64,000 nt of DNA from Cladosporium halotolerans (GCF_011745625.1 NW_027191484.1:186001-250000); one strand, 5' to 3'. Counted from the stretch's first letter, positions 1-20,200 are shown. Translations and numbers: made by a program. The notes: a model not told the origin generated them from the sequence alone.

Positions 1-262
1 ATATTCTCTGCGCCAGTATACGTTGCAAAGGGGCTTGACGACAACGAAGTATACCATGTTAACGGTGGTGTTGGACCTCGTATTCTAGCTGCTCACGCTT
101 CTCACGCTGTACTAATACACGGCTGCTCAACAAACATTTTTCAGCCCCTCGATCAGTGAGGTGAGATCTTCGCTTGACTCTCTTTGACTGGATCATGCAA
201 ATGACGCGGCGGCTTCCTAGAAGCAAGGATCACCCGTGGCTCCTTGTGAATTTGTTCGCTCC

Positions 263-903
263 TTAAGTTGCAGCTCCTGCAATGACAAGAATTTTGACAA
301 TGTCTTCCCAGCCTCTCATTTGCGCGACATTCAGCGCGCTCCTATAATCCCCTCTCAAACTGACATCTGCTCCATAGCTGAGCAACACTTGGATAGAGAA
401 CATGCGCGTTGCAGAGTGGCTTAGAACAATTGAAGCCCCAAACCATCGTTCTTGATGAGAATCCCACATTCCGAGGAAGAGAAGGCTTCGGAGTCCTGGA
501 AAGATGTCTTGGATGACACGCTCGCCTCTTTTCCTCGAACGTAGCTTCTTTGCTGCGCGCTTACTCGACGGCGTTGTGGTTTGCTCGGATCCGGATCCTG
601 CTGACTCCCCTGCACTAGTGGATGACAAGGAGTCATTATCAACCAACTCGTCTTCGTCAGAGGCTTTACCATCGCTATTGAAATGCCACACTTGCCATCG
701 GGATAGCGGCGTCGTAGACTTCTGAGAACCTTCTCTGAGAATTCTGCTTCTTGCATCGCCTCGCGAACTCGGGCTTCGATGTCGGTAGAATATGCTGAGC
801 CTAAGACAACGCTGTGCTTCGGTGGCTCTGTAAACTTGATTTCCGGAGCTGATCTTTTCTCCTGGCGAGACACTCGTTGTGGATGGGTGCCAGCGTCAGA
901 CAT
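263..903 (-). pseudogene. Degenerate ankyrin-repeat gene (frameshifted)
   Basis: Two overlapping minus-strand ORFs (421-903 and 263-691). The end of the second (VLLSYGADVSLRGDYRSALNVAQMRGWEDIVKILVIAGA) aligns by eye with the last ankyrin repeats of the 988-1551 protein. I found no clean intron joining the frames. Confidence 0.5.
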
Positions 904-987
904 TTGGGAGGTATCTGCATCTGTCTCCGTTCATGTCTGTGAAAGTCCTTGCGTGCCGTTGATAGGGTGAGCCAGGGGAACTATTGT

Positions 988-1551
988 TCATTTTCGGGGA
1001 GCCTTATCTCTCACGCCTCCTAGGATCTTTGGAAACATTGTGTCCAGCTTGGCTCCAGCCTCGATAAGGATGGCCACGATTTCTTTTCTGTTCCTCATAG
1101 AGGCAGCCTGCAGCGCACCTCCGTAAGCACCTTCAGTCAATGTTACATCTGCTCCGAAGTCTAGTAGCAACTGCACGATCTCTTGCCAGCCAGCGAATGC
1201 GGCAGCTTGTAACGCACTGTGGTAGTACCCGCCTACGACGTTTGCATTGGCCCCGTATAGCAGCAGCATCTTCGCAACCGCTGCATGGCCACGGAGACAT
1301 GCTGCTTGTAGAGCGCAGCCGTAAGGACCACATCTTGCGTCCATATCCGCCCCAAAAGATAGCAGCAACGCAACCGTCTCATTGTTGCCGCAGTAGCACG
1401 CGGCTTGCAGCGCTGTCCTGAAATGGCCTCCTCTTTCATTGGGATCGGCTCCCTCCCGAATCAACGCTTGCGCCGACTTCTCATCGCCTTCGTAGCAGGC
1501 AAACTGAAGCTTGTTGCCAAAGTATTGCTCTGCAAAATCCAAATTTCTCAT
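988..1551 (-). CDS. Stand-alone ankyrin-repeat protein (187 aa, ~5 repeats of the GGxYGxALQAA type)
   Basis: 33-aa periodicity: TALQAACYCG..LLLSFGAD, CALQAACLRG..LLLYGAN, SALQAAAFAG..LLLDFGAD, GALQAASMRN..LIEAGA. Confidence 0.9.
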   Translation of the reverse strand: MRNLDFAEQYFGNKLQFACYEGDEKSAQALIREGADPNERGGHFRTALQAACYCGNNETVALLLSFGADMDARCGPYGCALQAACLRGHAAVAKMLLLYGANANVVGGYYHSALQAAAFAGWQEIVQLLLDFGADVTLTEGAYGGALQAASMRNRKEIVAILIEAGAKLDTMFPKILGGVRDKAPRK

Positions 1552-2240
1552 GGCCTTTAGTGCCGTTCATAAAGGATTTCGTGGTATCGTGACAGCGGAG
1601 CGGGGATGTCTCGTCTGACCACTACGGCTTTGCAAGAGGCTGGTCCTGGTAGCGAGCGTGTTGTACAGTCGATGAAGGCAGATTCCTCAAGGCTACATGC
1701 CAAATTGGACATAATGGTCTTACTGTGGCTCGATCAGTCAAACCAAACTTTTGGCTTGGCCATTTGGACAGCCACGGTATACTTACTTAACGAAAACCCG
1801 CAATGCTGACCTAGGCTTGCAAGCAGGAAGAGTACAGGTGTGGCTCGGTCTGCCTTGCGCGCTGCTGGGGTCAGCCTCTTTGCCCTCGCTCGACAGCTTT
1901 GACGGGCGGCGGATCTTGACTTTCAGGGATTCCACTACCAGGTCAGTTGCTGACACCAGTCGCACTAAGTTACCTCTTGTTGCACGCCAAGGCATGTGAG
2001 GCCTGATGGCCTCAGGGTCCCGAGTAATATCCGATGAACTACGAAACAGCGCGGTCGCGGAGCCCAACCCGAATCTAATACAACGATTATCTATATACAG
2101 TAGGCAATGGCCTTGCAATGCGCCATGGTCCATGCGGCATCGTTCGATCGGGCCCAAGACGTGCCACAAGGCTATAACGTTACAGGAACTAGTGTTGTAT
2201 GATGAGATAGGCTTCCAGGGTTGCGGCGCCAACACAGGTA

Positions 2241-2283
2241 ACGTCCATCCACCCGTGCCGGGAATCCACCTGTGCCGGGACAC
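2241..2283 (+). repeat. Left terminal inverted repeat
   Basis: ACGTCCATCCACCCGTGCCGGGAATCCACCTGTGCCGGGACAC contains two tandem ATCCACCyGTGCCGGGA units, the usual Fot1-family TIR layout. Confidence 0.9.
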
Positions 2284-3225
2284 TTCTCCTGATCTTCGCT
2301 CTATATCCGTTATCCACACCACATCTCATTGATAACCCATCTCTTGCTATTCTTCTGCCATTTGCCTGTAGGCCTGACCGTGTGTAGAAGCACCGATTGC
2401 GTAGACAACCGTTCCATCATCCAAATCGTCGCTGTCGTCGTTCGACGCTTGTGTATCCGAGCTCGCGCAGAAGCGATACGTAGTTCGAAAAGGGTTGAAA
2501 GCTGGTACGCTAGATAAGCTGCGGTCAGAAGAACTTTATAGATTGAGACACTCTCCGCTAGGGCCCATTATCGAAGGTTACGGCACGTAGATAATCGCCA
2601 GGCTGGTATCTCTGCAGGATTCGCCTCCAGGCCCGCTAAAAAGGGCCCGAAGCGAAGCGCTCCGATGTCGCGAAGTTTACCCTCTGTGATTCGCTCGCTT
2701 AGCATGGCATGGAAGGGCAGATCCGTCGTTCGCCCGTCCGGAGCTTTGCCGCGTCTCAGCGGTTTCGATATGGCATTTGGCGTTGAGCGTTCTGCAGGAG
2801 GCGAAGGAGCCTCGTGAAATTTACAAGCAAGATCACCTTCCAGAAGCCCTGCACTTTTTAGCAATGTCTTATTCGCCGTCGCCCCAGCTACACCTTATTC
2901 TATCTACCTACTGCCCATGCAAGTGCTCCGCTATAGCTTAGGTGATGGCGAATCGAGACGGTCTAGCTTTGACGAAGTCTTCTTGCCAGCACACGATATC
3001 AAAATCGTTTCGTCCTATCGCAAACCACTCGCCCACCCTCGAACAACCCTACATGCTCATGCCAACGGCGCCGTTGATTCATCTAAAGCCCAGAGCCGGA
3101 GATAATTAAGGCAATTCCGAGGATCAGGCTATGATTGCAACCTATACTTCTGTGCACATGGTTTCTGTCCAGATCACGTGACGACGGAAATACTGGCGAA
3201 CGTGTTGCGATAAAATACCTCTCTC
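2241..3225 (+). pseudogene. Decayed inverted copy of the transposon 5' end (subterminal region plus transposase N-terminus)
   Basis: Aligns with the reverse complement of ~6890-7865. Peptide relics HPRTTLHAHANGAVDSSKAQS and GERVAIKYLS match transposase VPVSTLHARARGRRSIEAKAQG and GTPVRNKFIP, with stops and frameshifts. Confidence 0.8.
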
Positions 3226-3440
3226 ATGAGCGGACAAGCAATAAATGTGTTCCGTTCTGGTATAGCCACTGGCAATTTCAGTGTCTTCTTGCGCTGCCTT
3301 ATGCTATAGACTACCCACGTCTCCGTCAGATCTCATGCCGCATATCCACCAAGCAACGCGTGCCCTGATATTGAGCGAGCTCACTTGAATATATCGTTTC
3401 TTCTTCTGTTGCTTCGAGCCGGCGTGGGTGCGTGTTCCCG

Positions 3441-4306
3441 TCAATCCTGAAGGGAGAGAACGGCGTTGAAGTCAACAATCGTCGGATGGACTTCTTCGCT
3501 GAGTTTTGGAGTATCGATGCATGGCTGTGTTGAAAGACCGTGCTTCGAGAAAGGCCCTAGGGCAAGCACTGCCTTCATTGTTCTCAATGATTCGTTGATG
3601 TCTCTGGGGCTGTCCCTGAGGCAGCGGAGAATGTCCGGAGCATTCCCCTCAGGACAACAACGTAACAATTGCAGCAGTTCCAAAAATTTGTCGCGTTCTT
3701 GCTGGAGCACATTCGTCCTACGACGTAAAGCGCTCCACCGGGTTTCCCCCTCTTCCGTGGAATATTGACAATCAACATCTCGCTTTTGGCAATTGGAGCA
3801 TGACGGGCTGTGAAAAAAGTCAGAAGCTGAAAACACGCGCTCTTTGCGATTGGTGGAGGATCTATCACCGTGAGCCGTTACACTGCAACACCGATTAGCT
3901 GAGATTGAGAAGGATCAAAACACTGCCCAAGACATTACCTTTGCTTTCCTCGCCCTACAATTGAAGCATGCAGCTTGAATCAATGTACGTTTGCAACTGT
4001 GGTCGTTCTGAGGTCGCTGGTCAATATCGGCTGGCGGTGTCGAAGGGCGAATGTCGCTGTCATGAGGAGACACTTTCCGGTGTGTAGGCGTAGGCGTGGC
4101 ATGCTTACTGGAATGACGTTAATCTCAGTGTGACGAGCGATAGGCGATCGGTTCTGAGATTTCAAGCCTTACATAACACAGTGAAAGTGCCTGGTGCATT
4201 TGTTGGAGGAACAGCGATGCGGCCGCGAGATTTTTGATACACCATTCCCTTGCGAACGGCTTCTGTCACAGTATCGTGAGGCCTGCGGCTCTGGAGCTGT
4301 TTGCAT
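3441..4306 (-). CDS. Short Zn(II)2Cys6 protein (C6 cluster plus coiled coil only, ~227 aa)
   Basis: Spliced model: exons 4306-4173, 4107-3939, 3882-3869 (14-nt microexon) and 3807-3441, all with GT-AG introns. It gives CFNCRARKAKCNGSRPSCSNCQKRDVDC followed by EGETRWSALRRR. The 5'-most exon is the least certain. Confidence 0.75.
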
Positions 4307-5398
4307 GTGGTGGCAACTATAAAAGATTGTCAATGCTTAGCAGATCCCATGTGCTCGAGGCACTCACATACCTTTTGCGATTTGTAACAGCTGATGAACC
4401 CATAAACTCCTCAATGCTATGCCTGTAGGTAATAAAATCTTCTGCGCGAGACATCGGCAATCTCATGATAAGAGGTTAGGACGGAGTTCGTGGAGGGGCG
4501 TAAGTTGTCTTCGTGCATATGCAGCTCGAGGTAATTTTAGTACCTCGACAAGGGAGGTAAAAGGCCTTCCTCTGAAAGAGGTGATGCGTCGTTACGTAGC
4601 CGTTCATTCACGATCACAGCACTTCTCGACGCTTAAGCGCCTTTTGCGGGAATCGCCAAATCCGACCATCAATATCACTAAGATCTAATTGGACGGCGAA
4701 ATGTCATGACATGCATCCGTCGTCAGGGTCATGGCACATTCGGGCTCACCTCCGGCCCTCGGGATTGCAGTAAGCGTTTGAGGCTTTCCCGCTGTCCGGC
4801 TGGACGGCGAGGTTAGACCGGATTGAGCTCTACGGATAAATCACATCGCCTATGTGGTACAGGACTTACATTTGCTGGTATTGTGTCTAATGTACTGCTC
4901 CAAAACTCTGGAGACATTTGAAGCAAACAGCAATGGTTCCGCGGCTTCCTCCTCGTACGCGGCGACCGCGTACCGTAGAATCAAATCGGCAAGTTGATTG
5001 GCCCTTCAAGCCGACGACGGCAATATCTGAGGCGCGTGCTGCCCTCGAAACCATTTGATGGTTCGCACAGAAGCAAGAATCCGGCTAATTCGATGAATAT
5101 AATGAAGTTGCAACATTGCTTGATGCAAGTTTGTGCATGAGACACACTTAACAAAGTCATTCCAGCTTACTAAGTTATACATGCTTTCAGAAAGCGCTCT
5201 TGGTTCTTCGATAGTGGTTGCGAGTTCTCTATTTCGCGGGTGAATTTCGAAGTCGAAGAAATGAGGTCGTCTGGCTTTGCTATCTCTGCCGAATGTAGGC
5301 CTGACAGAGAACCACGGAACAGCGTTCGTGATCAGGTAATTCCAGCGACACGCAGGCTGCCATTGAGGCGCAAAGGCTAGGTTGTACCATGAGATCAC

Positions 5399-7141
5399 TC
5401 ACCACATACGCGCGACCGGCGCCGCACCAGGACACGGAGGAATAGGCGCTGCTGTGTGCTGTGCTTGAGCCATCAAGAGCGTGTCATCGGCCGATCCCGC
5501 AGCAGCTATAAGCGGCGACTGGAGCATCGCATCCAGAACGGCTTCCTCTTCACCTTTGCGCCTCCGTCGCTGCTTCTTCGCAGCTCTCCTGGCATCTTTC
5601 TCAGCTCGCTTCGCTCTCGCCTCAAAAAGATCCTCGTAACTCATCACTTTCGCTTTGCCAAGGACCAGCGACTTCGTTGCACGGCGGACTTTGGCTTCGT
5701 CATTTGTCTTGAGCAGGGATTTTATACGTTCTTGTTGAAGAACGCCTCTAGCAATGGACGTTTGAGCTCCTTTAGTGAGCTTCTGAAGGTGTCGCTGAAT
5801 GCTCTGCTTTCCTGTATCCTCCAGCGTGTGTGCATCCCTCTCCAGAATGAAGTCACGCAGCGCTAGGAAAGCCTCTGCCGTCACTGGCGTTACGGGTGTG
5901 ATGGGCGCTGCAGGGTTTATGAGCGTTTCATCTTGACAAGGCCTAGAACTTGACGTCGGTTCCCCACCGGCTTCCGGGGCCGTCAATTCGGCCAGAGGCT
6001 TCACCAAGTCCTTCAGCACTCGTTCTGGGTTCAGCGGGTACAGCCCGCCTTTGCTCCAGCCTGCGAGGATATTCTTCTTTGTAAACGCTTTCTTTCTTGC
6101 AGAGCTGTACAGGTATGTAAAGTGTTGCTTCCCAATGGCGTTAACACCGCCCCGTTCCAGGCGCTCAACGGCATCGCGATACGCTGCTTTCAAGGGGGCG
6201 AAGACAGCAATGTCACACGGCTGCAACTTATGAGATGTGTGGGAAGGTAGCCGGCATAGACGGATGTCACTGGCGAAGCAGTGCTCTAGGATCTCGAGCG
6301 TCTCGTGCGTGCCGAAACCATCACAGATCAGCAACCGTTTCTTACCCGTTGCTCGTTCCTTGGTCTGCGGGTCGAACACTTTTTTAAGCCACTCGAGGCT
6401 TATTTTGGAGTCAGTGTAGCCAGACTTGGAACACGCATAATGCCATCCTGGTGTGGGGTGCGTCGTCCAGTTGCTTCTATGGGTGGCCGCGGGCCAAATG
6501 ACCATAGGGTTTAGAAATCTACCATCCGCACTGATGCACTCGATCGCAGTGACCATCGTTCGCTCTACTCGTGCACCTCGATAATCCCGTTGGTCATCCT
6601 TTCCTACGAGCACATTAACAGAGCCGAGCATAGAGAGCATGACTCCGGTCTCGTCCATGTTGTACACATTCTCTGCAACGATTGCGTCGTCACCCAGTAC
6701 TTTACTAATCACGTCAAACCAGTGTTCTACCTTCGGGTATATGTTCTTGTCATGGCGCTTCCAATTTAGTGGTTTCGCTCGTCTGGTTTGTAGCTCTGGA
6801 TGCCTTCTCTCGAAAGCTTTGGTCCAATTCTTGTTTGGTGCTTGGGCTGGTCTGTCCACTTCCAGTCTATGGCGGGTGACACTGAAAGCTATTGATGGTA
6901 TGAACTTGTTCCGTACAGGGGTTCCCAGGTCGGACATCTCCAGGATAAACTCGATCACGGCCTTCTCCTCGAACGGCGTGAGGTATTGCTGGCCCTGGGC
7001 TTTTGCTTCGATGGATCTGCGGCCACGCGCACGAGCGTGGAGGGTAGAAACTGGAACATCCCGGTGATCTGCTATAGCACGCAACGATCTTGGTACGCCT
7101 GCGGAAACACCTTGCGCCAAAGCCAGGCTGGCTCTGTCCAT
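5399..7141 (-). CDS. Fot1/pogo-family transposase (CENP-B-type HTH plus DDE_1), 580 aa, intact
   Basis: Motifs NVYNMDETG, LICDGFGTH and LQPCD..VFAPLK; 35 residues separate the second and third Asp (DD35D). Confidence 0.95.
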   Translation of the reverse strand: MDRASLALAQGVSAGVPRSLRAIADHRDVPVSTLHARARGRRSIEAKAQGQQYLTPFEEKAVIEFILEMSDLGTPVRNKFIPSIAFSVTRHRLEVDRPAQAPNKNWTKAFERRHPELQTRRAKPLNWKRHDKNIYPKVEHWFDVISKVLGDDAIVAENVYNMDETGVMLSMLGSVNVLVGKDDQRDYRGARVERTMVTAIECISADGRFLNPMVIWPAATHRSNWTTHPTPGWHYACSKSGYTDSKISLEWLKKVFDPQTKERATGKKRLLICDGFGTHETLEILEHCFASDIRLCRLPSHTSHKLQPCDIAVFAPLKAAYRDAVERLERGGVNAIGKQHFTYLYSSARKKAFTKKNILAGWSKGGLYPLNPERVLKDLVKPLAELTAPEAGGEPTSSSRPCQDETLINPAAPITPVTPVTAEAFLALRDFILERDAHTLEDTGKQSIQRHLQKLTKGAQTSIARGVLQQERIKSLLKTNDEAKVRRATKSLVLGKAKVMSYEDLFEARAKRAEKDARRAAKKQRRRRKGEEEAVLDAMLQSPLIAAAGSADDTLLMAQAQHTAAPIPPCPGAAPVARMW

Positions 7142-7822
7142 CCTCGCGATGTGGCCGCGCCGTCGAGGTACAGTGGTACACTAGTAGAACCGGTGGGGAG
7201 CTCGGAGGAGGACCGGCTGGGGAAGCGGCCGACCCTGTCAAATGCCAAGCATTGCAAGGCTCTGGCGCACGATCTTCCATGCACTTCCATGTGAGCTTGC
7301 TTCACCTCCTGCGGAACACTGACCCCCGTTTCGATATCAAAACCTCCGAGACAGGTTTTCCCTCCAGACGGGCGGACGGTAAGCCCGCGTTGCCGCACGG
7401 TTCTACCCGAGCAAATCGCGAAGAGCGAAAGCCGCGACACCGGAGCGCATTCGCGCCTAGCCCCAGTCAGCGGGCCTGCAGGCTGATCCTGGAGAAAGAC
7501 CAGCCTGGCGCTTATCCCAAGCCACAGCCCTTCATCAACGGTCCCTGGCGGGAAGCGTTCGGATCTACAACCTTCTTCTGACCGTAGCGCATTCAGCGTA
7601 TCTGCTTTTAACTTCGCCCGGACTACGTGTCGCCTTTCCGCAAGCTCAAAAGCCGAAGCGTCAAACGATAACGGCGACGATTTGGTCGATGGAACAACTA
7701 TCCACGCGATCGGTGCTCCGACACATGGTCAGGCCGATTGGTCAATGACAGAAGAATAGTAAGAGATGGCCTATCTACAAACATTGATGTGGACAATGGA
7801 TACAGGGCGAAGATTAGAAAAG

Positions 7823-7865
7823 GTGTCCCGGCACAGGTGGATTCCCGGCACAGGTGGATGGACGT
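7823..7865 (-). repeat. Right terminal inverted repeat
   Basis: GTGTCCCGGCACAGGTGGATTCCCGGCACAGGTGGATGGACGT followed by TA; reverse complement of 2241-2283 with one mismatch. Confidence 0.9.
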
Positions 7866-8900
7866 TAACGTTACCTTACGTTCTTCAGTCTCTGCGTCTG
7901 CTCAAAGCAGGGCGTGCGGAAAGATCTTCCGTAACGTTGAACGAATGCGGCCAGGGCGGAAAAAGTAGGTGAATTCTGCATCTTCTTACTAGCACTATCC
8001 TCTTCCACCAATGATTGCAGGCGGTTTGTCTCTCATAAGACTGATGGTACTGAGAACTAATTCGGTCGTTATTCTTCTGCACTTCCTTTGCAAGCCGTCG
8101 ATGGAATCAAGCCATTTGACACAATAGCAAGCGCTAGTCTAGATCCTGCTATCATGTATCTACAAGGACGGGAGAACAGAGCATTAGTGTCTGCCCTTTA
8201 ATATGCTTTGCCCTACCCACAGATTTGGGTATTAGCCGAAGTACCGCATCCATAAGCATAGTGGCAAGACCAAGACAACAGCAATCAGTTGCGAAAGAAA
8301 CCACAAATCCCAGATCTGCAAGCAGTCTGCAACACGACAACATCTTCCACAGGCCGAGCACAGTACTCTTAGGTGCTCTTTCCGGCGGTCGGTTGCGCAT
8401 TCCCTACACACGTGTAGAGCTGGCAAACGCGAGCGTTTGGGGGGTGGGACGGCAAGTGGCCTTCCCTACGCAAACCTGCACGATGAGCAACGGCTCATAT
8501 AATGAGTGCGACGTTGGACTTGCACGCTGATATGCCAGATCGCAATTAAGGTTGATGTGAAGAAGCATGTTGTTGCATTCCAGCCTCTCTATGTGCTCTT
8601 ACAGGAAGGGAATCATGGCCTTTTCCAGTTTGCATAGATGGTAGAATGTGATCTTCAACTTGCGCGTTTTCACGCAGGGAAACTTCAAACAGGCCACGTG
8701 ACCCGGGTATTCTTTGAAGTTCTTGACCCAGGATGAGCTCTCATCGACTTAGTGGTGCTAGCAGAAAGACGAACGCCAATACACTGGAACACTTCTACCT
8801 AACTTGTAATACTGGCAAAGCCACTTGCCACTTTTGAAGTTTCTGGATTCAAGCTCAGGGACGAAAGACAGAAATCCAAAACCGTGATCCGCGAATACCC

Positions 8901-9126
8901 AGCGTATTCCCGGAACCAGGAATCAGGCGGCGCGACTCGGGATGCAGGCTCATGTGCTGCAGATGTTGCCGATCGTGCGGGAACGCTCGACTTTCCTTGG
9001 CACGGGCGGGTGACAGACAACCTTGTACTCATCATGCTCTTGGAATCTAGGATCACACCGGCACGTAATTAACAATGTTGCCGGGTAGCGCCGAGCCCGT
9101 CCAAGGTCGGTGAGAACCGTGTACTC
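8901..9126 (+). repeat. Non-coding direct repeat, copy A (~220 bp)
   Basis: Shares ordered blocks GGAACCAGGAATCAG, GGCACGGGCGGGTGACA, TGGAATCT, AATGTTGCCGGG and GGTCGGTGAGAAyCGTGTACTC with 14201-14419. Confidence 0.9.
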
Positions 9127-9634
9127 AAATCCCCCATTTTCACCGTCGTTTGTAGATACAGGATCCCGGCGTGTTGTCGTTGGAACTGCACTTGTCAGGC
9201 TCAGGTCAAGTCAGGATTCATGTGGTACTGCTAACAAAAGGCACCAAACGAATGGCAGACTATCAAATACTTTCCCAACCCTTTCACACGATTGCGGCTA
9301 GGAAAGTACTATTTCTATCAACGAACAATGGGTTCGTGATTCCAGGTTAAAGATCCTGTAAATACACTTGTAGTGCAAAGTCACCCCACCAGAATGGAAC
9401 GTAAAATCACGATCACACGAACCAGAACGTGTGTTGGAGGTGGGGTCAACAGCATCCGGTCGGCTTGCCTCTTATCATCTCCAATTCCTGTTTCCTGATT
9501 TTCACTTGCTCGTTCCTGACTTGCCCCTTCTTGGGGACTCCCGATCCTGGCTCGATAACGTTTCTGTGATTTGTTGGGACCTACAGGTTGGCAGCAAGGT
9601 TTGTAGCAAGCTCACGCGCTGACAGTTGGCGCAA

Positions 9635-9658
9635 ATCCTGGATTGCAGAATCCAGGAT
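9635..9658. promoter_or_regulatory. Perfect palindrome ATCCTGGATT-gcag-AATCCAGGAT upstream of the Zn2Cys6 gene
   Basis: 10-bp arms with a 4-bp spacer, read directly. Function is inferred from position only. Confidence 0.4.
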
Positions 9659-10144
9659 CCGGAAGTAGAGATCAAGGCTGAGGCCGAGACGCGCCATTCC
9701 CGCGATCTGACTGGAGCTGTAGCGGGAAGGACGGCGAATCTGCCGCTACACTTTCCTTGACCCGTTACCACTGCCAAGCCCAGGGCGTCTAGGCTGGGGT
9801 GAGTACAGACAGACGCAACTAAAGCGGTTAGCTATCGAGGTTCAATTAAATGGTATCGCGAAATGGTGATCAAAAATATTGTGCAGTACCTCGCAGTTGC
9901 CGCTCAGACTATAGTCACCCGTGACTGTAACATACTTTGTGTATGCATGCATGGCGCTGCACAGGGCTGTAGGCACGAGGTCCCTCGGAGCTGGCCTCGC
10001 TGGCCTATGAACGTTTTCGTCGGGTTATCCTCCGAGCCGGCTTCCACGACTCCAATTCCCATGCGTACGCTGCCGACAACACCATCATACATACTAGGAC
10101 AGCATTCACAGCGATCAGGTCCACTTCAATCACCGGCCGCCCCG

Positions 10145-12444
10145 ATGCCTACACCTTCTCATAAACAGACGGTCCGCGCCCATCCGTCCGCACCCGTAGC
10201 TGACTCGTCAACTTCCGCTGCGAGCAATTCCAATAATGGCCGAACGAACCAGAGTGCCCGCCGACAGCAGATTGGCGTAGCATGCAATTCTTGCCAAGTT
10301 CGCAAGGGCAAATGTGATGGCCAGCGTCCCTGCAAGTGGTGTCGCGACCACGAAATCCCATGTAAACACGAGGCGGAAGCTGGAGAAACCCTCACGAGCG
10401 CGAGGAAGAGGAAGTACGAAGACCTTGAGCACGAACATCTTACCCTGCTCGAGCTTGTCAATATCGCAGCTTTGCGGCCTGATGCTGGTGAAATTCTCCA
10501 GCAGTTCAAAAATGGTAGAAGAGCCGGAGATCTTGTCATCCTGCTCAAAGAGGGCGACATTACGTACCAGAATCATCTGGGAAGCGACCCACGCACCAGG
10601 CGAATGCTCCTTTCTCTCCTCATCCAGAGCACTGCGTCGCTCGACGAGATCATCCTCATAGCACCGAGAATCGCGGAAGCACGGCTGGACATCACATGGG
10701 AAGCTGAAGATGGCAGGACCAAAGCTCTGAAGAATCGCACGATTGATGCGGATGCGATTGTATCGGCCGTTGATAACCTCGTTGCTCCAGACGCTCCTCC
10801 GAAAGCTCCAGACCCGCTAGGGCAGTCATTCAACAAAACAGACCGCGGCCTCACCAACGAATTCCTGTTGAGAGCTCGGCCATGGACAAAGCTGTTGACA
10901 GACGATGCTCTGGTAACACATCTTGTGACTATATTTCTTAACTACAACAATGTATATTGGAGATACGTCGAACAAGATCTCTTCCTGAGGAGCATGCAAT
11001 CTGGGAATGTCCGAGCGGAGTTTTGTTCGCCTTTTCTGGTTAACGCTATCTGTGCGTTAGCATGTTTGAGCTCGGAACATGGTGTAGTGTTCAATCGACC
11101 CGATGACTTGATAAGCCGAGGGCAGCACTTCCACGATGAAGCGTTGCGTCTATGGCACTTGGAAAAAGGCAAGGCGTCGGTGACAAACATCCAGGCTCTT
11201 GTGATTTCTTCCATGGGATCTGGCTTTCGGGGCAAAGACAAGCTGGGCCTTTCGTTGCTCGCTGTCGCTAAGCGCATGAATGACGAATTACCCTTTCCGC
11301 CCATATCCGCAGAGACAATCACTATTTCCGACAGAACAAGAGCACGAGTCAGTGCGTGTTGGGCTTTTCATCATTTCGACACGTTCGTAGGCTCGTAGGT
11401 GGTTCATGATTTATATCAACTTTACTGACAAGACATAGGACTAGCGCGTTGGGGCTTCTTCGAGTGAGCGTACCCATCGACACAAGACTGTCGTTCTTAC
11501 CCAACTTCCCAGAGATCTGGCGTGTATGGACTGGCGAGCCTTTTCTCCGTACCAATACCTACTTCCGACCTAACGCATTAATGCGCGAGCGATGTCAACT
11601 TATCCGTCTGACAGCTGAAGCGGTGAACCTGCTCTTCACAACTGTAGACGGTATCAGTCGCCCGGCGTCTGAGAAAGCCATCAAAGCTGTGATGGCACGA
11701 ATGGAGCATTGGTATAGTCTCCTGCCGGACGATCTACAATTCCATAAGAATCTCCCAGCCCCAGTGTATGAGCTACAGTAAGTGTGATGACTTCGAGAAT
11801 GCAGATACTAACTACCTATTAACCATGTTGTCAGTGGCCACTACTACTGCGCACTAATAACTCTTCGCTCATCCTTGGATTCCTTACAAACCATCCCCAA
11901 CTGTCCCAACGCTGTCGCCCATTCCTCTGCCTCTCCACCGCAGGCACTGCTTGCAGTCCTGCAGGCGACGAATCTCTTACGAGCCTTTCGGCAGACATAT
12001 GCCTTTAAATGCCCTCTTGCTTTCATATTCCAAGTTTCTGCAATAGTATCATCAATTTTGCTTCACCATTTGGAAGTCTCTCCCACAGCATCTCCACAAT
12101 TGGCAGGTATGCTTTCGGATCCACAGGACGACGTCAAAACGGCCTTCGCCGAGAGCTACCGTTGCCTTTTGGCCATTGGGACCCGAGTCATGATCGGCCG
12201 CGGCGTGGCTCGCATGGTTTATCACACTTCTAGGGCGCGGAACACTCCTTTACCTCAGAGCACGCAGCGCTTGCTCGATGTTGTCAGCGATGTTGTTTGG
12301 AGCTCGACGGATGTGAAGCACATCAGCTCGGATTTTCCAAACTGGGGCATGCAGAAGAGCCTTGCGGTTAACGAGGATGCGCGCATGGAGCGATTACTGA
12401 AACAATGGGAAGGTATCAGGTTAAATGACGGCAGTGCAGGTTGA
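10145..12444 (+). CDS. Zn(II)2Cys6 fungal transcription factor with middle homology region (NirA/Nit-4-like architecture)
   Basis: CNSCQVRKGKCDGQRPCKWCRDHEIPC; PWT..LV..FL and FCSPFLVNAICALAC motifs. Introns 11383-11438 and 11778-11834 join three ORFs in frame. The start could be an upstream in-frame ATG such as 10061. Confidence 0.9.
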
Positions 12445-12685
12445 GGTTACTCAATGTCAACAGGGTGTTGCGATTCACAAGAATTTATGCCATCAGCAGA
12501 CCTATCAGAAACCTGTTCGACGATACCCATGGCCGCACATATGTTGGAGAACCGCTCATGATTCTCATGAATGTGATACCTAATAGGCATCGATTAGCAC
12601 ATGAGTATTGTTGTATTTTCCGATCTTGCCCGGTAGCTGAAGCCGTGGCTCGCCATGGGAAAATCAATCATTAGACGTATTACCA

Positions 12686-13441
12686 TTAAGACACAGGTTT
12701 TGTATATGAATTATCGATTACCAATAATTCGTACATACAACCATAGGTCGGCGAAAACTGGGCATCCGAAATCCCCCATGTCGAAGCCCCTCCCATGTGT
12801 GATCTTCTGGCCATACCTGATACTCGAGCGCTTCGGAGTCTGCTAGGAGATGTACAGGCACGACAGTGGCCTTTCGAACTACGCAAGACAGGTCCTTCTA
12901 TCGTGTAGTACGTCGAGTTTGTAGGGAGACGCCACGACTCAGTAGGCGGCAGAGTCAGGACCCTAACGATACCACACGCGCACGCGTATCGGGAGAATAT
13001 TCCAGACACCCCCTTACCGTATCTGCTCCAGTCCAGATATCCCGTTCGCGATCTTGCCATTTGCAATCGTGGACATCGAGCATCCGCATGATTCATTAGT
13101 GGGCCCATAGCTGAGGTAAGTGTCGTCATCTCATGCTTCTCGGCCCGTTCCTGCACCCAATCCCTAGGAAGTCCAGTCCAAAATAATAATTTGTCCACAT
13201 TGTCGGGAATGCTCTCGAGTTGTGCTATGATCTGCTCTGCTTCTGCCTGGGTAAGATATTCTAGGTCACTTTTCGTGACAGATAGTCTTGTGTTGTGTAA
13301 CGACAGTTGTTGCCGTAAGATTTGCTCTTCTAAGTCATTGTTCTGAGTTGATGGACCAGACTTCAATAGCAGCTTCGCTAGCCGACTGCATTCATTCAAC
13401 AATACCGAAAATAACAGGATATGTCTCTCCAGTGAGTCCAT
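12686..13441 (-). CDS. Putative ADP-ribosyl cyclase/NAD+ glycohydrolase-fold protein; C-terminus possibly frameshifted
   Basis: Ordered motifs LLFWTG, MTTL, KGVSGIFSRYACACGIVRVL and NSTYYTIEGPVL parallel CD38 LLWS, MFTLEDT, KTVSRRFAEAACDVVHVML and NSTFGSVEVHNL. No signal peptide. Confidence 0.6.
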   Translation of the reverse strand: MDSLERHILLFSVLLNECSRLAKLLLKSGPSTQNNDLEEQILRQQLSLHNTRLSVTKSDLEYLTQAEAEQIIAQLESIPDNVDKLLFWTGLPRDWVQERAEKHEMTTLTSAMGPLMNHADARCPRLQMARSRTGYLDWSRYGKGVSGIFSRYACACGIVRVLTLPPTESWRLPTNSTYYTIEGPVLRSSKGHCRACTSPSRLRSARVSGMARRSHMGGASTWGISDAQFSPTYGCMYELLVIDNSYTKPVS

Positions 13442-14200
13442 GAGGTGTTGCTAAAGGATTTGAGAATACTGGTCTTATGCGGCTTTCGACATGCCAAATC
13501 AAAATGTAACGTTAATTGCTCTGTTATTGTTGAGCTTCTTGTCGTGCAATCATAGATTGGCAGAGCAGGCGCTGAGACCACGCATGTAATCGAACATCAA
13601 TTGCTACAGGGCGGGGAAGCTTGAGAAATCCATTTGACACTGATCGTAGGTTTTTTATAACCGTGGATTATCGCTCGATTCGCATTTTCAGAGACGCGTA
13701 ATCTAGAATACCCCTGCCCAGAATCATATGTCGAGAATTTGATGACAAATTCTCTTATGCCATAGCCGATGCTATTGGAAAGCAAAAGTCTATGTTGCCA
13801 TACATAGCAACGGAACCCAACCTCCCCATCTGAGCAGTCATATTCCTTCGACACTGTGACCGCAGATGGCAGAACGAGATAACAACACGCAAATCTCGTT
13901 AACACGTCGCACGATTGAACAAGTGGCGGACCATGCTTAGATACAAGGCTAGCCAATAGCATGGGAGGTGGCAGCTGACCTTCAACTTCCAAGCTTCTAT
14001 AATGACAACTGTCTGGCAGACCACGCGATCGGGTGCTCTTCAAGAGTCCCTGATCCAGGATGAGTTTCAATCGACCATGTGACGAACGTTACATCCTGGA
14101 AGCCTACTATCTGAGCTGCTAAAAAAACGCCTGTCGAGGCCCAAGCGCTTATTCAAGAACTGGAACCCACGAGATCAAAGCTACGATTGGCGGGATGGCC

Positions 14201-14419
14201 AACGTGTTTCTGGAACCAGGAATCAGTGAGCGGAGACTCGTGATTCAGGATCACGTGCTGCCGGTGTTGCCGCCCAGGCGAATATCCGCTTCCCAGGCAC
14301 GGGCGGGTGACAACCGTCCTTATATTCCTGGAATCTCGGGTCAGCAGCTACGGCACGTGATATAGAATGTTGCCGGGAAGCGCCAAGCTCGTCCGAGGGT
14401 CGGTGAGAATCGTGTACTC
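14201..14419 (+). repeat. Non-coding direct repeat, copy B (~220 bp)
   Basis: Collinear with 8901-9126. It lies in the divergent intergenic region between the genes starting at 13441 (-) and 15356 (+). Confidence 0.9.
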
Positions 14420-15355
14420 CGTCCGCTCTGCCATACATAAGCACTGAACCGGGCGACTAGTACTAGAGTGGGTGACCATCTGGGAATCCCGCCTGTTGTA
14501 TGTTTTTGTACTTTTTCTCCGGCCATGTTGTTTTTGTGCCGATTTTATCAGCTCGATTTGAGGTTTGCCAACATGTGTTGACTCGAGCCCGAACCTTTCA
14601 TTCGAATAAAGCTCTTGCGCGGCAATAATACTAATCTTCATGAACAGAATTGACCGCCTGGAAAGAACATTTGTGTCTGCTTGGCTTTGGACATCCAGTA
14701 TAAATAGCTCATGGATCTCGATTCTTAATGCGCCGAGATGGTAACTGTGTTAGAGACAGAAGTACGTCCAAGTCCACTGCGACCATCGAGAATATCACAA
14801 TGTGGCAAGCACCAGTCAAGCAACCAAAAACTCAAAACATCGGGTTTCCCATAGGGACACGTGAAGTGAAAGAATTGCCGCCTCGATCGAGCCGTTCGCA
14901 AGCGAAAGAGACCGCGTGTCTTCAGCGGTCTTGTCCGCCACACCCAAACGACCTTCGCCTTTCACGCCATACTTCGTAGCTAATCTGGAGTCTGCAGTGT
15001 GGAAATCGTAGGCGCGTGCCTAGCTTGGGCGAAAAATGCATTTCTGTTTCGCAAGGAGCGATGGATCCAGGGATGCAAGAGAAGTTGGGGAGCGCCACCA
15101 ACAAAACCCGGCGGCAAGCGGCTGGTAGTCGGCGCTTCGCCGCTTTCTGCCTTCAGTGCCGTGAGTGCGTACCACACCATGACTCTTCCTCGAACAACAT
15201 CAGACATGGGTTCCTTGAAGATGCATCCGTGTACCCAGTCGGGCACTGGAAGAATTTCTGCCGTCGTGCACGTTCCTATAGATTCTTCAGTTCTTCGTGT
15301 CCTGCCTTGCTTCCACACATGCTGAAATAACGACCAATGGCCTCTCACATTCGTG

Positions 15356-16494
15356 ATGTATCATTTGAAGAGCATTCTCATCAGCATTTGTATCGCCGCC
15401 ACTCAATTCGCACATGCAACCACCTTCGGTGTTGGGTTCAGTCTAGCTATCGACCATGGGTATGTCAGAATAGGTATTCTCAGGGCACCAAGTCTGACCG
15501 CTGGAACAGAGTCGCCAGCGTGCATTTTCGCAACGGGTCGACCGTCAATATCGCCAAGGTAGAAGGCCCGGAGGCTTACAGGATTGCCATGGAGGTGGCT
15601 GTCCACATACCCTCTTACGCCCAAATCAATCTTACCGATGCCGCGAGTCTCAGTGCTCCGTCTTGCAGCTACGCAAGGTTGGTTCCACAGCCCGAAGCCC
15701 GTTTGGCCGTCCAGTCTCTACGTGATCGCCTCCCGCCATGGTTGGGCGGCAAGAAACCAGATGCTCCCGACGCAGCAGCACAAGCTCTCGAGAGGATGTT
15801 ACGTGTCCTCAAAATTGCCACGGAATCTTATCTTGAGACCGACATTCGCAACGCAATCGTTGCGACCCCCTACGATACCAGCGATGCCTTCAGAAGCAGC
15901 ATGCGCACAGCATCATCTGCTTTGGACATTGAAACACGTCTTTATGGAGCAGCGCAAATCTCCAACTGGGCGTTTGATATCCCCCACAATTGTCCTGGCC
16001 CTTTCGGCCCTCCAGACACTCCGTATGAAGATGACGAGTTGGTGCTTGGTATGGACTTCAGCAAAGCGGCATTCACAGCGACGCTCGGGCTTTTTGCACC
16101 AGGCTGTGGTGTGTGGGAGGACGTTCGTGTGGGACAAAGCGCTGCGTTGGGCGCAAAGAACTTGTTCGCGAAAGAACGTTGGCACGATATGCTCGTCAAT
16201 GCAATGCGGAAAGTCACCGCCTTGCCAGTCGATCATTATCCACTTGCCCGTGACATCAACCACATTAGCCGGCTTGTACTTATTGGCGAATCGGTTGAAG
16301 ATAAAAGGTTTGAGGGCGCTGTGAGGCAGGTCTTCAGTGAGCAGTACAGTGCACAAGCTACATCGAAAATAATGGGCAACGCGCAGCGGCAAGATCCAGT
16401 ATATGTTACGGCCATCGGCGGTGCTGTGCGGAATTGGTTCAACAGCGACGATATGGCGTGGAATAACTTGTTGGAAGCCGAAATAAGCCTATAG
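15356..16494 (+). CDS. Secreted protein with a degenerate Hsp70/actin-like nucleotide-binding fold
   Basis: Exon 1 (15356-15459) encodes signal peptide MYHLKSILISICIAATQFAHA; intron 15460-15509. MLRVLKIATESYLETDIRNAIVATP, LVLGMDFS, ISRLVLIGES and DPVYVTAIGGAV follow the Hsp70 NBD motif order. Confidence 0.7.
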
Positions 16495-17209
16495 GAGATT
16501 TGCGTTATTGTGGCAACAACTCAATGTCAAGATTACTCGTCTCCCCTGCGTGCCTTCTTCGAGATCTACCTAATACAGTGGCGTAGAATAGGGTGTTCTT
16601 ATGTACGCATAACCTAAAGTGTTATCTTCTGTTACCTGTGAAACAAATTGTACAGACTAGGCTTTAGATAAAGAAGAATGGGACTACTCAAGGCTTCACG
16701 AGTAACGAGAAGTGTTTGTCTGGCCCGTCGTCGTATCGCCCTTCAGCTTCTGCCGAACGGTATTAGTGCTTTTTGATCTTCACCCGAGCTCACGTCCAGC
16801 ACGCAAACTCGGATGTTGTTGAGATTCCTGCGCAAAGAGCGATATTTTACAGGCATCCAGAAAGTGAACACAAGATAAAAATGAGTGCAGTCCAGACGCA
16901 TAGGAGCTCCAACGTCATGTCATGTGAACGGGCGTTCAAGGCGCGATCCCGGGCGCTGCTGAGCTTGGGCCACCGAAGTTGCTCCACGCACTGTTTTGGT
17001 GCGGCTTCCAATCCAAACAATCGCGAACGACACTGTAACCACACCACCAACGATAACGACGACGACACACCAGATTCTTGGAATCATCTTGAAAATGTAC
17101 AGCTTTGTTTGAACGTCCGGAAACCTGCGGAAAGAGGCCCGCCACCGCCAAAGTAGTCGCACTGTTTACGCGCCGCGCGTGAAGCGACAGTATTCGAACG
17201 CAAACCAAC

Positions 17210-20200
17210 ATGGCGGCCGCGCGCTCCAAAGCGGCGACCATCGGCTCTGCGCAATGGGTCCAAAAAGAGAGAGATCAGGCTGCCGAGTTCGTAGAGCAAG
17301 AGGTGGAGGAGTTTGGCTACAGTGTACGAAATGAGATGGAATGGCTCAATGAGCACATGGCAGAGATCTTTAGCACAAATGCTGTGTATGATACTTTTCA
17401 TGCGCACCACACCATGCAGCCTTGACTAACGCGATACAGGAACTACGCAGACGTGTTCAAGACTCCCGGCAAACTGCGAGGGAAAACGCCGCGCACCGTC
17501 CGGAAACGAGAGGCTTTGGAACAGCGCCAGCCTCTTACTGACATCTTTGCACCCAACTCTCAAATCAGCCCAACACCTGCGAAAAGCACTCCCTTTTACG
17601 ACAAAGTCACGCGATTCCAGATTGCCGAAGATGGCGAGAACTCAGTATCGCAACAACGGCCACTCAGCCGAAGCAAAAGCCCGCAACGCGTTGGAAAGCC
17701 TGGCAACATCGATTCCGGATACCATGGCATGACTGAAGACGAACTGGAGGCTGACACTCAAACCGACGCCGACACCGTTCCCTCCCAATCATTGGAGACC
17801 TATACCGCTTCCCACGAAAATCAAATTCCCACTCAGAAATCGAAAGACGGCGCAAATGAAAGCGAGCCCGTTAGCGACGAATCTTTCATGTCTGCAAAGG
17901 AAGGTGCATCTCAAGATACGTCCAAAGTACAGGTGGACGCAGAGATCGAGGAGGATAACGCCACTGTTCCGGACGATGACATGGAAGTTGACGCGCCTGA
18001 CGCGCAAAATGAGCAAGAGGTGGACCCCGAACTCTCTCATGAACCCGCCGATGAGCCCGAAGCAAAGGCTGAGCCCGAGCCAATAGAGGATCTTGACGTG
18101 GGGATGTCGCATGAGCCTTCAGAAACGTCGAGCCCAGCGCAACCATTACAACGAAAGAGCAGTTTCACGTTCTCATCTTTGCCGGCAAGAGAACCTTTGA
18201 CAGCAAAGCGAAGCATAGGAGGACGCAACAGCAATATGGAGGCTATGAACCGCAACAGCGTCTTCGCAAAGTCGATCGGCAAGAGTTTTGGCATTACCCA
18301 CGACGATGGCGAGCTTTCGCAGGAGAAATCCGAGGATGCGATGGCGCGTGGCAAAACCTCAGCACAGCTTCTGCATGAGCGCATCTCTATGCTTGGAAAA
18401 GCGAAGGACTCCAGGTCCTCCAAGAGCATTCCGCAAGCTCTTTATCCACAGCTGCCGCAGGCCGATGCCGAGGAAGATGAAAACGATACGCAAGATGCGC
18501 CAGAGCCGCCGCCCAAGGATGGTCCGACTGGCGCCACTGTTGACGACGAAGACGATGATTGGATCGCGCCTTCTAAGCCAATGCCGCAAAGGCAGCCTGA
18601 GCAGGCCCCGAGCAATGCCACACCAAGTCGGCCTATGCACAAAAAGGCAATCTCGACTACTGTCATTCCTTCTCCGTCTAGGGATGCCATCAGGCCAACC
18701 AGCCGTCTGCAAAAGACCCAGTCAGTAGTCATGTCTGGTCGGGTGTCGGAACCAGAGTCCACTACGCCTGCGGGATCGCCTGCTAGCAAAAAGAACACAG
18801 AGCAACAAAGCGCGTCGAAGAAGTTGTGGTCGGCATTCAAATCTGCTAGGAGTCTTTTCGCCTCGTCAGCAGGCTCGAGCGCTGCCGCGAAACTTGAGGC
18901 TCACGATTCTCCGGCTGGGAAGAAGAGTAAGAAGCAGCCCGCCGACGAAGCTGCAAAGGCAAATTTCATGAAGATGCCCGGAGCGCTGTGGTCCGAGACA
19001 ACGTTCTCCCAGACGTCCTCAAGACCGATGTCCGCGCTCTCTGGCAGCCCAAGTAGAAAGACCCGTAGCTCAACCGAGAGCGACAAGAGGAAAGAGAAAG
19101 ACCTCAAAGCTCAGCAGAAAGCGGCCGACGAGCTTGAGAAGGCCAGGGAAAAGGAGCGGCAGAAAGCAAACAAGGCTCAGGAGGAGAGGTTTCAGGCAGA
19201 ACGTGCTGAGGCGGAAAGGAAAGAAAGAGAGCTTTCCGAGATCGCAGCTGCAGAAGCCGCCGCCCAGACCGAGCAGAGGCCAGCGACTGCCGAGAGTGAA
19301 AAGGATCGCGAAGATATGCCTCCGCCCCCGCCACCGAAAAATCCGGCTCCCACAGGAAGGCTGCGCGCACCTAGTAGGCCCGTCAAGCCAACTAGGGAGG
19401 CCGTCAACACAAAGTCCAAGCCGGCTCCAGTCAATATTCGCATTGCGGCTCAGTCCCAGAGGCTCAATCAACCATCCTCGCAAGACTCCCTGCCAGGTTC
19501 GAAGCAAGAAAATGCTCCACCTCCACCGCCAAAGACAGGATTACGGACCAACTCAGCCCAAAGCAACTCACGCAGCTCGACGATGCCTCAAAACAACTCT
19601 CGAGTCAGAGCGCTGGAAGCGGCTGCGCGCAAGAAGGAGCAGGAAGAGCGGGAGAAGCAGCGCAAGGCCGATCAGAAACGCGAGCTCGAGCGTAAGCGTG
19701 CGGCCAAAGCTGAGGAGGACCGCCGCATTGAGCAAGAGAAAAAAACCGAAGAACAACGTAAGCTGCAAGAGTCGAGACTCGCGGCACAGAGGCAAGCTGA
19801 AAAGCAGGCCGCTGAAGCTAAGAGGCGTGAGCAACAACGTATCGAGCAGCAACAACAGCGTCAGGAGCAACAACGACAGGATCAACTGCGCCTCGAGCAG
19901 TCGGCGGCGGCCAAGGCTAAAGCTGCCCATGAACTCGCGGAGGCAATTGCGCGTGAACGTGCAGAGAAGCAGCCCATGCCTCGTGGTGACGCTCCAGGTA
20001 CTTTGAGGCAGCTTGGACAAAGGACGATTCCTGACCCATCTGTCCGACAAATTCCACCGAACCCTGCAAAGCCACCGAAGCGGGTACTGCAACAGGAAGA
20101 TGACGATGCATCTGCTCAGGCGCAGAGACCAGGCGTACCGCGCAATCCTCCCTCATACCAACAGAACGAGGCAAAGAGGAGAAAGACGGAGGAGCTCGAG

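Follow-up and report, generated by a model that had tools for sequence, protein, structure and literature searches.

A gene-sparse, strain-variable chromosome piece of Cladosporium halotolerans, probably assembled by independent insertions around a 5S rRNA gene

A Zn2Cys6 transcription factor, a gene resembling NAD-degrading enzymes, an Hsp70-like gene with a hydrophobic N-terminus and a small ankyrin-repeat gene lie side by side in the first 16.5 kb of a 64-kb stretch of DNA from Cladosporium halotolerans (the window, which was analysed as a whole), and their proximity raises the question of whether they act together in conflict or defence, or are neighbours by chance. NAD-degrading domains and ankyrin repeats recur in immunity and toxin-immunity systems, and a first-pass annotation of the window had read the four genes as a co-regulated defence system sharing an upstream sequence module, with coincidental linkage as its fallback. 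It is the fallback that fits best. With a probability of roughly three in four, the region at 1-16.5 kb is a gene-sparse, strain-variable chromosome piece which arose from several independent events and forms no functional unit. Chance would have brought the neighbours together: at a tolerant spot associated with 5S, a transposon and a piece of a gene would have inserted next to unrelated resident genes. The transposon occupies 2239-7871, where related DNA in another sample has an empty site, and the 5S gene lies in two parts, split by 1652 bp that carry a broken copy of a CD38-like gene.

Contigs of the public runs X2, X4, X5 and X9 were aligned to positions 1-20000 at 88% likeness. One public run contains the entire query and further runs contain parts of it; the k-mer shares in runs X5-X8 were 0.25-0.28, and among these only X5 was aligned. 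The X5 contigs cover neither 1-2001 nor most of 8005-14007, a gap that is no evidence of absence. X2 and X9 are taken as RNA because their contigs lack the GT-AG introns of the genes concerned (Table 1).

A polymorphic transposon and its passenger gene

The element at 2239-7871 is a polymorphic cut-and-paste transposon of the pogo/Fot type. An X4 contig joins position 2238 to 7872, with a shorter side of 255 nt, and thereby omits 5633 nt; the X4 DNA at this empty site is about 95% identical to the window. Loose ends of X5 and X9 contigs at 2239 and 7867 lead to copies at other places, and in one X5 copy 1913 other letters replace 2978 of the window copy. The transposase open reading frame (ORF; 5399-7180, minus strand) matches the full profile of Pfam DDE_1 (E 2.9e-33) as well as HTH_Tnp_Tc5 (E 5.2e-05). 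TA duplications stand at 2239-2240 and 7866-7867, and the two ends carry the same ~45 nt in inverted orientation, as part of imperfect arms of about 570-610 nt (2241 to ~2850 and ~7260 to 7865); 2239-2806 and 7867-7300 are 72.4% identical over 576 nt. The DDE_1 and HTH_Tnp_Tc5 domains, the terminal inverted repeats (TIRs), the TA duplication and a mobility visible as empty-site polymorphism are shared with the Fot1/pogo (Tc5-like) transposons of fungi.

The arms differ at 180 of 602 columns, and repeat-induced point mutation was rejected as the sole cause of this divergence because 112 transitions are accompanied by 68 transversions. At the right end an extra ACGT (7868-7871) precedes the next TA; together with this second TA it may be the excision footprint of an earlier visit by the same family. 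The letters after the right TA (window 7866-7873) are also the transposon's own final four.

The available part of a survey of the pogo superfamily (PMC7386202) gives TA or TAA duplications for Fot elements and sizes of 1.20-5.20 kb, and restricts very long TIRs (392-856 bp) to certain insect elements. Since the sizes given there stop at 5.20 kb, the present transposon, at 5.63 kb, would be an outsized variant, and it departs further from the elements described in that part in its arms of ~600 nt, which are 30% diverged, and in the second, spliced Zn2Cys6 gene that it has aboard. A limited literature search found no mention of Zn2Cys6 together with pogo/Fot1, which is no proof of absence in print. 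The 5.6-kb transposon itself had gone unnamed in the first-pass annotation.

That second gene, the passenger, lies downstream of the transposase on the same strand. Its ORF (3441-3914) gives a weak Pfam match to Zn_clus, and its start codon is not fixed; removal of two short GT-AG introns (3808-3868 and 3883-3938) restores a perfect CX2CX6CX6CX2CX6C motif. A loose end of an X2 contig at 3808 reads the exons joined, with 3 mismatches, and therefore at least a near-identical copy of the passenger is spliced in this way. The product has a DNA-binding domain only, without Fungal_trans, and the predicted "mobile micro-regulator" has thus turned out to be a spliced mini Zn2Cys6 gene within a transposon. 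A single comparison of the product with the N-terminal part of the regulator next to the transposon gives 30% identity over 66 aa (E 3e-7). This likeness (3441-3914 versus 10061-11380, in genes 5 kb apart) reaches beyond the zinc cluster.

The interrupted 5S gene and the origin of its insert

The second event concerns the 5S rRNA gene. Contigs of X2 (depth 573) and X9 (depth 73) pass from 12766 directly to 14419, and the canonical 5S part that starts at 14419 is very deep in all runs (1563 in X4). At 14385-14504 Rfam RF00001 scores 39.2 bits, against a gathering score of 38, over model positions 1-120; the full 5S model can be aligned here because the last ~34 nt of a sequence module adjoining the canonical part resemble the 5S 5' part, and the low score fits a degenerate 5' third. 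When the module end is anchored at the junction and set against the 5S 5' piece, 17 of 34 positions are identical, a value that 0.14% of 34-mers reach.

The gene that the insert carries, judged by its sequence, is probably dead. Its frame is lost after ...GHCRA near 12856, beyond which conserved sequence resumes in a different frame, without the near-invariant QIN motif that stands in relatives at this place as part of a conserved QIN.VHLL; resemblance to P0002, a relative with 90% identity, reaches no further than ~12784; and three near-invariant columns of the family alignment A3 are altered (W99R, A145V and A150S). X4 contigs cover the site with 0 gaps and contain the frameshift too, so that it is real and no assembly error. 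The N-terminal extension of P0002 was considered as a sign of further breaks in the relic and dropped, as other members start at the relic's Met.

The first-pass annotation had placed a duplicated module upstream of three genes. A repeat does exist: in a self-comparison of the whole window only two repeat pairs appeared, the inverted arms of the transposon and the direct module pair (8899-9126 and 14199-14419; 73.9% identity over 234 nt). There are only two copies in the 64 kb, however, and the module would be the end of an inserted unit that mimics the 5S 5' part. Copy C lies between the relic and the Hsp70-like gene and is separated from the latter by the 5S 3' piece. At its left end the insert starts with 17 nt that are also seen after copy A, and the AAATCCCCCAT which follows copy A recurs behind the true 5S 5' piece at 12769. 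A metagenome locus (L024) is 88% identical to the window over 14419-13090, and all likeness is gone exactly at 14419; copy A closes with the same ...GTGTACTC. Three junctions can thus be written down: module end to left end at 9126, 5S 5' part to left end at 12766, and module end to 5S 3' part at 14418. As the module end mimics the 5S 5' part, the latter two look like attL and attR attachment sites and that at 9126 like their joined, attP-like form. Recombination of a 5S gene with a unit whose ends were joined would be expected to leave such a pattern, and ectopic recombination could yield the same.

The insert might derive, by deletion, from a small element with site-specific integration in 5S genes at about position 35, a CD38-like cargo gene, and a 5S-like 5' end of its own that re-forms a 5S-like gene on one side. 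Such an origin is unlikely but deserves some weight: the three junction types obey the logic of attachment sites, the same module terminus stands beside three different sequences (the two window copies and L024), and the anchored resemblance (0.14%) and the Rfam alignment over 120 positions both tie the module end to the 5S 5' part. A further copy that shares the left end is weakly hinted at by an X4 joint from 12783 to 13945, whose side measures 27 nt. Against this, no recombinase was seen; a search of 16 metagenome loci with family members gave no Rfam matches, 5S or other, and hence a 5S gene in 0 of the 16; the common left end is just 11-17 nt long; without anchoring, the best of 50 shuffles attains the same local alignment score; and ectopic recombination among dispersed 5S genes and pseudogenes would create similar junctions. 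That a so far undescribed type of small fungal element is involved, specific for 5S sites, with a CD38-like NAD-processing cargo and a 5S-like end, and that the window holds a decayed derivative of it, is doubtful. If true, the element would re-form a 5S-like gene in the manner of bacterial islands at tRNA genes, and its two ends would stand joined at the 9126 junction.

Other classes of element agree poorly with the insert. It has neither a target duplication (at most one shared base) nor inverted or long terminal repeats, and was rejected as a Helitron, a long-terminal-repeat element or a TIR transposon; a retrocopy was rejected because the 5S piece is antisense to the gene. Contigs of X2 and X4 begin to match the 5S 3' part at 14457, or cease to match it at 14492, and the unrelated sequence into which they continue is alike between these runs; it seems, therefore, that further 5S copies are broken elsewhere within the gene.

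A larger element has also to be weighed, namely that everything left of ~14.4 kb is the tail or debris of an element of the Starship kind in the 5S gene, with its captain left of the window. The accessible portion of a Starship survey (PMC11162782) places 23% of 222 curated insertion sites inside 5S rDNA, and mentions repeats of 6-16 bp and at least five target sites. As with Starships known from 5S rDNA (Voyager, Enterprise and Arwing), as far as that portion describes them, the insertion would lie within the 5S coding region and one end would repeat part of the 5S target; the right edge abuts the 5S 3' part, and the left part varies between runs and carries a nested transposon. The insert measures 1.65 kb, however, and not the tens to hundreds of kb of the Starships covered there, and the 5S 5' piece is a mere 1652 bp from the 3' piece; the 5S-like repeat is ~30 nt long and degenerate, not an exact 6-16 bp. 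No captain is visible: no DUF3435 tyrosine recombinase was matched in 20 large ORFs of 1-21 kb or in 31 of 20-64 kb, a search that extends over the window only. An X5 contig (joining 9405 to 14378, see below) retains sequence from inside the supposed element, and the homologs of the regulator look vertical. A Starship origin is thus improbable, and the piecemeal assembly of the region by independent events remains the preferred account.

Resident genes and the right-hand boundary

The coordinates of all features are collected in Table 1.

Table 1. Features of the region and its right-hand border, in window coordinates
Feature	Position	Strand	Remarks
Degenerate ORF, downstream of the ankyrin gene	263-895	-	probable relic
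Small ankyrin-repeat gene	988-1548	-	~186 aa, first Met to the stop at 988-990
Pogo/Fot-type DNA transposon, 5.6 kb	2239-7871	-	inverted arms, TA flanks, empty site
Passenger gene, short Zn2Cys6 protein	3441-4316	-	same strand as, and downstream of, the transposase
Intron, transposon passenger gene	4317-4371	-	spliced out in X2 (joint 4316 to 4372)
Transposase	5402-7141	-	open, 580 aa
Module copy A	8899-9126	+	ends ...GTGTACTC, then AAATCCCCCAT
Zn2Cys6 transcription factor (regulator)	10061-12444	+	start codon one of three candidate Mets
Introns, regulator	11383-11438 and 11778-11834		spliced out in X2 and X9
5S rRNA 5' part, ~34 nt	12733-12766	+	canonical
Insert between the 5S pieces, 1652 bp	12767-14418	-	relic, its upstream region, module copy C
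CD38/ADP-ribosyl-cyclase-like gene relic	12784-13441	-	frameshift ~12856, cut off ~12784
Module copy C	14199-14418	+	last ~34 nt resemble the 5S 5' part
5S-like gene	14385-14504	+	5' third degenerate (module end), 3' part canonical (from 14419)
Hsp70 nucleotide-binding-domain-like gene	15356-16494	+	362 aa, intron 15459-15508, hydrophobic N-terminus
Intron, Hsp70-like gene	15459-15508		spliced out in X2
Intron, INCENP	17386-17439		spliced out in X2
INCENP	ORF 17426-21025		Pfam; first clear appearance in the window

A Pfam scan of the 20 largest ORFs of 1-21 kb gave, left of INCENP, only ankyrin, a weak Zn_clus, DDE_1 with HTH_Tnp_Tc5, and Zn_clus with Fungal_trans. No clear housekeeping gene of 1-16.5 kb is among these 20, gene density is low, with three intact host genes and two transposon genes, and relics are present, namely the NADase-like gene with its frameshift, the 5S gene in two pieces and, at 263-895, faint traces of ankyrin repeats; in these respects the first description of the region holds. 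The GC content is 0.48-0.54 across 1-18 kb and 0.54-0.62 further right. Right of INCENP, the 31 ORFs scanned in 20-64 kb include an arylsulfotransferase, an ABC transporter, a 2OG (2-oxoglutarate) oxygenase, an amino-acid permease, a NUFIP1-like protein, Rpc25, WD40 proteins, a Cys/Met PLP (pyridoxal-phosphate) enzyme, TAF7 and a second ankyrin protein. No tRNA genes were found in 1-20 kb, and 20-64 kb gave no Rfam matches, 5S or other.

The regulator is intact and expressed. Its ORF at 9803-11398 (plus strand) carries Zn_clus and Fungal_trans in Pfam, and removal of its two introns leaves a single open frame that ends at 12444; both domains and the open spliced frame that characterise a Zn2Cys6 transcription factor are therefore present, as the first-pass annotation had predicted. 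The first exon has 75 homologs, which grade across the Cladosporiales and related orders, with identities of 88% and 87%, then 62% in Cladosporium sp. NU13, 51% in Oleoguttula, 49% in Rachicladosporium, 35-40% in Hortaea, Friedmanniomyces and Dothistroma, and lower values in Aspergillus, a gradient that fits a gene conserved in the lineage. In the X2 contig of the regulator transcript single bases are missing at 11163, 11294 and 12069, where X4 and X9 match the window; these losses are either contig errors or a variant allele of that sample.

The ankyrin gene is likewise intact and expressed: intron-free X2 contigs span 54-1666 without a gap, and the ORF at 988-1566 (minus strand) matches Pfam Ank/Ank_2 (E 3e-25), which bears out its identity. 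The neighbouring ORF at 263-895 is probably a relic, to judge from its sequence. Its ankyrin matches are below threshold (E 0.08-0.1), and a stretch of 21 aa (428-490, minus strand) matches a GAF histidine-kinase ORF of L024 (E 8e-4), of which it may be a leftover. That histidine-kinase ORF adjoins the NADase-like gene of L024.

The third host gene is an expressed, intact Hsp70-ATPase-like orphan. Its spliced model equals the annotated 362 aa and is identical to the C. halotolerans hypothetical protein WHR41_07792. The ORF (15331-16494, plus strand) matches no Pfam family, PF00012 included, at E<=5, and a word-seeded search found only 4 relatives, of 32-38% identity; the Atlas holds ascomycete clusters of up to 665 members. 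The Atlas model (predicted TM score 0.71) superimposes on Hsp70 ATPase domains and clusters with TM scores of 0.60-0.64, and a family profile gives weak matches, almost all to Hsp70, with two collinear motifs. The AlphaFold model is poor (pLDDT 42, TM 0.2) and was used with the sequence-aware score of Foldseek and the support of the Atlas; with it, Foldseek retrieves 200 PDB chains at E<=0.001, and the top ones are all Hsp70 ATPase domains (E ~1e-7). The actin-like ATPase fold of Hsp70 is thus predicted by Foldseek and the Atlas, and the earlier call of an Hsp70-like protein stands at the level of the modelled fold. Compared with the Hsp70 nucleotide-binding domain (PF00012; DnaK, Ssz1), with which it shares this fold-level match and the two ATPase-domain motifs, the protein lacks a substrate-binding domain, has altered glycine-rich nucleotide motifs, and possesses an N-terminus (one basic residue, a hydrophobic run and AHA) that looks like a signal peptide. 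The earlier notions of a secreted decoy and of ankyrin immunity find no support beyond this hydrophobic stretch.

The conserved core had been thought to begin at INCENP (17210). An X5 contig of 28,997 nt already starts at 14480, by the 5S-like gene, and runs on through the Hsp70-like gene into INCENP; over 14480-20000 (5521 nt) it shows 9 differences from the window. The Hsp70-like gene therefore stands on the conserved side, and the sequence in common with the other isolate appears to be bounded by the 5S-like gene near 14.4 kb rather than by INCENP.

The NADase-like family and the question of a defence system

The relic belongs to a family of its own. Its 251-codon frame has 28 relatives, all from metagenome or run assemblies and none (0 of 28) in NCBI or UniRef, and a profile built from 12 short members reaches 315 clusters (at 50% identity) at E<=0.001 and 255 at E<=1e-10. 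No real match to a Pfam domain, PF02267 included, was obtained in 110 family members, and neither the relic ORF (12686-13450, minus strand) nor P0002 matches a Pfam family at E<=5. Searches of PDB sequences with phmmer and profiles gave nothing significant, the best match to CD38 having an E of 1.4; the profile-to-PDB search was dominated by low-complexity tails. The AlphaFold model of the intact relative P0003 has a mean pLDDT of 55 and is confident only in residues 50-155, and the best Foldseek matches are weak (E 0.08-1), nearly all of them ADP-ribosyl cyclase or CD38. With the VIA aligner the P0003 core scores Z 5.0-6.7 in the top 45 PDB entries and 4.7-4.9 in four more, over 102-135 residues at root-mean-square deviations of 3.7-6.9; these 49 are all CD38, BST-1, Aplysia cyclase, a CD38-like toxin of the Pantoea type VI secretion system or a streptococcal ADP-ribosyl hydrolase, and the first unrelated row follows at Z 4.1. 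A language-model search ranks a Rib_hydrolayse cluster second (0.87, 186 shared features), which serves as a lead only. A CD38-like fold of the family, which is not filed under PF02267, is thus likely but unproven, and the nearly invariant Glu of its IEEP motif (E174 of P0003) may be equivalent to the catalytic Glu of CD38. The earlier cyclase or NADase-like call finds support at the level of the predicted fold only. Tox-ARC domains are known in fungi (Zhang et al. 2012, PMC3482391), and the [ST][DE] signature listed for Tox-ARC in the available part of that source is not evident in the family. Compared with CD38/Tox-ARC (PF02267) the family also lacks a signal peptide and disulfide pattern, and many of its members bear long Q/K-rich tails.

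The surroundings of the family in metagenomes are diverse. At least 10 distinct paralogs, 66-92% alike in DNA, come from a few metagenomes (L001-L023), and paralogs share the gene and ~400 bp upstream only. When 10 window proteins were compared by tblastn (E<=1e-3) with 26 metagenome loci that contain NADase-like relatives, the matches were limited to transposase fragments in 3 loci and to the upstream ORF of L024, and 0 of the 26 loci hold relatives of the Hsp70-like protein, the regulator or the ankyrin protein. Neighbours change from locus to locus among 56 flanking ORFs of 9 loci scanned with Pfam, and include NB-ARC with TPR, a PIF1 helicase with an SsdA_C-like domain, a reverse transcriptase and housekeeping genes; APH-type kinases stand beside relatives in three loci, L024 counted, and L024, the closest copy of the relic, adjoins a histidine kinase. 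The family thus tends to lie in variable DNA, without a fixed partner. In individual loci, an SsdA_C single-strand DNA deaminase toxin domain (L012:8172-9350, minus strand, E 2e-15) and, in the same neighbourhood, a PIF1-like helicase (L012:5995-8106, minus strand) lie beside one relative, and a protein with NB-ARC and TPR_10 (L004:1156-5351, minus strand) lies ~3 kb from another. NB-ARC with TPR_10 is the usual build of fungal NLR-like (NOD-like receptor-like) proteins.

The idea that regulator, NADase-like effector, secreted Hsp70-like protein and ankyrin protein form a co-regulated defence system is very improbable: all four gene types are present, two of them of kinds that recur in immunity, the module lies upstream of three genes and three of the genes are transcribed in X2, yet the effector is frameshifted and truncated, the module would be an insert end and has a 5S piece between it and the Hsp70-like gene, the regulator looks conserved in its lineage, the Hsp70-like gene stays on the INCENP side in X5, and the genes co-occur in none of the 26 related loci. 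PADLOC, applied to 10 proteins, returned only generic ankyrin matches. With the toxin-immunity and NLR-linked clusters of fungi the region shares domain types (a NAD-processing fold and ankyrin repeats) and a setting in variable DNA; it differs from them in that its effector is broken and that it has no recurrent partner gene or conserved cluster.

Several points nonetheless weigh against an accidental assembly of the region. NADase-like relatives occur near NLR-like (NB-ARC and TPR), SsdA_C deaminase-like and APH kinase-like genes, so that the family may itself have a place in conflict biology; in L015, a large ORF with ankyrin repeats, unrelated to the ankyrin gene of the window, lies ~7 kb from a relative. 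The relic's frame (12689-13441, minus strand) is open over 251 codons and keeps the candidate catalytic Glu. The joint from 12766 to 14419 could partly be the choice of the aligner, as true 5S contigs fit the canonical 5' piece better than the degenerate module end. The transcript evidence from X2 and X9 consists of contigs, which speak to presence and splicing only, and the view ends at the window's left edge. Part of the region, finally, has an accessory look, given the polymorphism of the transposon and a single X5 contig in which 9405 is followed directly by 14378 (a 38-nt side, at the 88% threshold); that contig omits the regulator and the relic, which weakly suggests that this segment is absent from the X5 isolate and that the stable block starts at the 5S-like gene. 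An accessory or variable region, as first proposed, thus finds some support in the X4 empty site and this one X5 joint; a functional unit does not.

The present analysis clears a false lead, in that NADase, ankyrin, Hsp70 and regulator genes lying side by side make no defence system here, because the "effector" is a relic and its neighbours were, in the favoured reconstruction, assembled by insertions. The dispersed 5S genes of C. halotolerans seem to attract insertions. The relic leads to an uncharacterised fungal family without a Pfam model and with a possible CD38-like fold, often situated in NLR- and transposon-rich DNA, and the oversized pogo-type transposon, with its expressed regulator that consists of a DNA-binding domain only, would represent a simple route by which host transcription may be disturbed.

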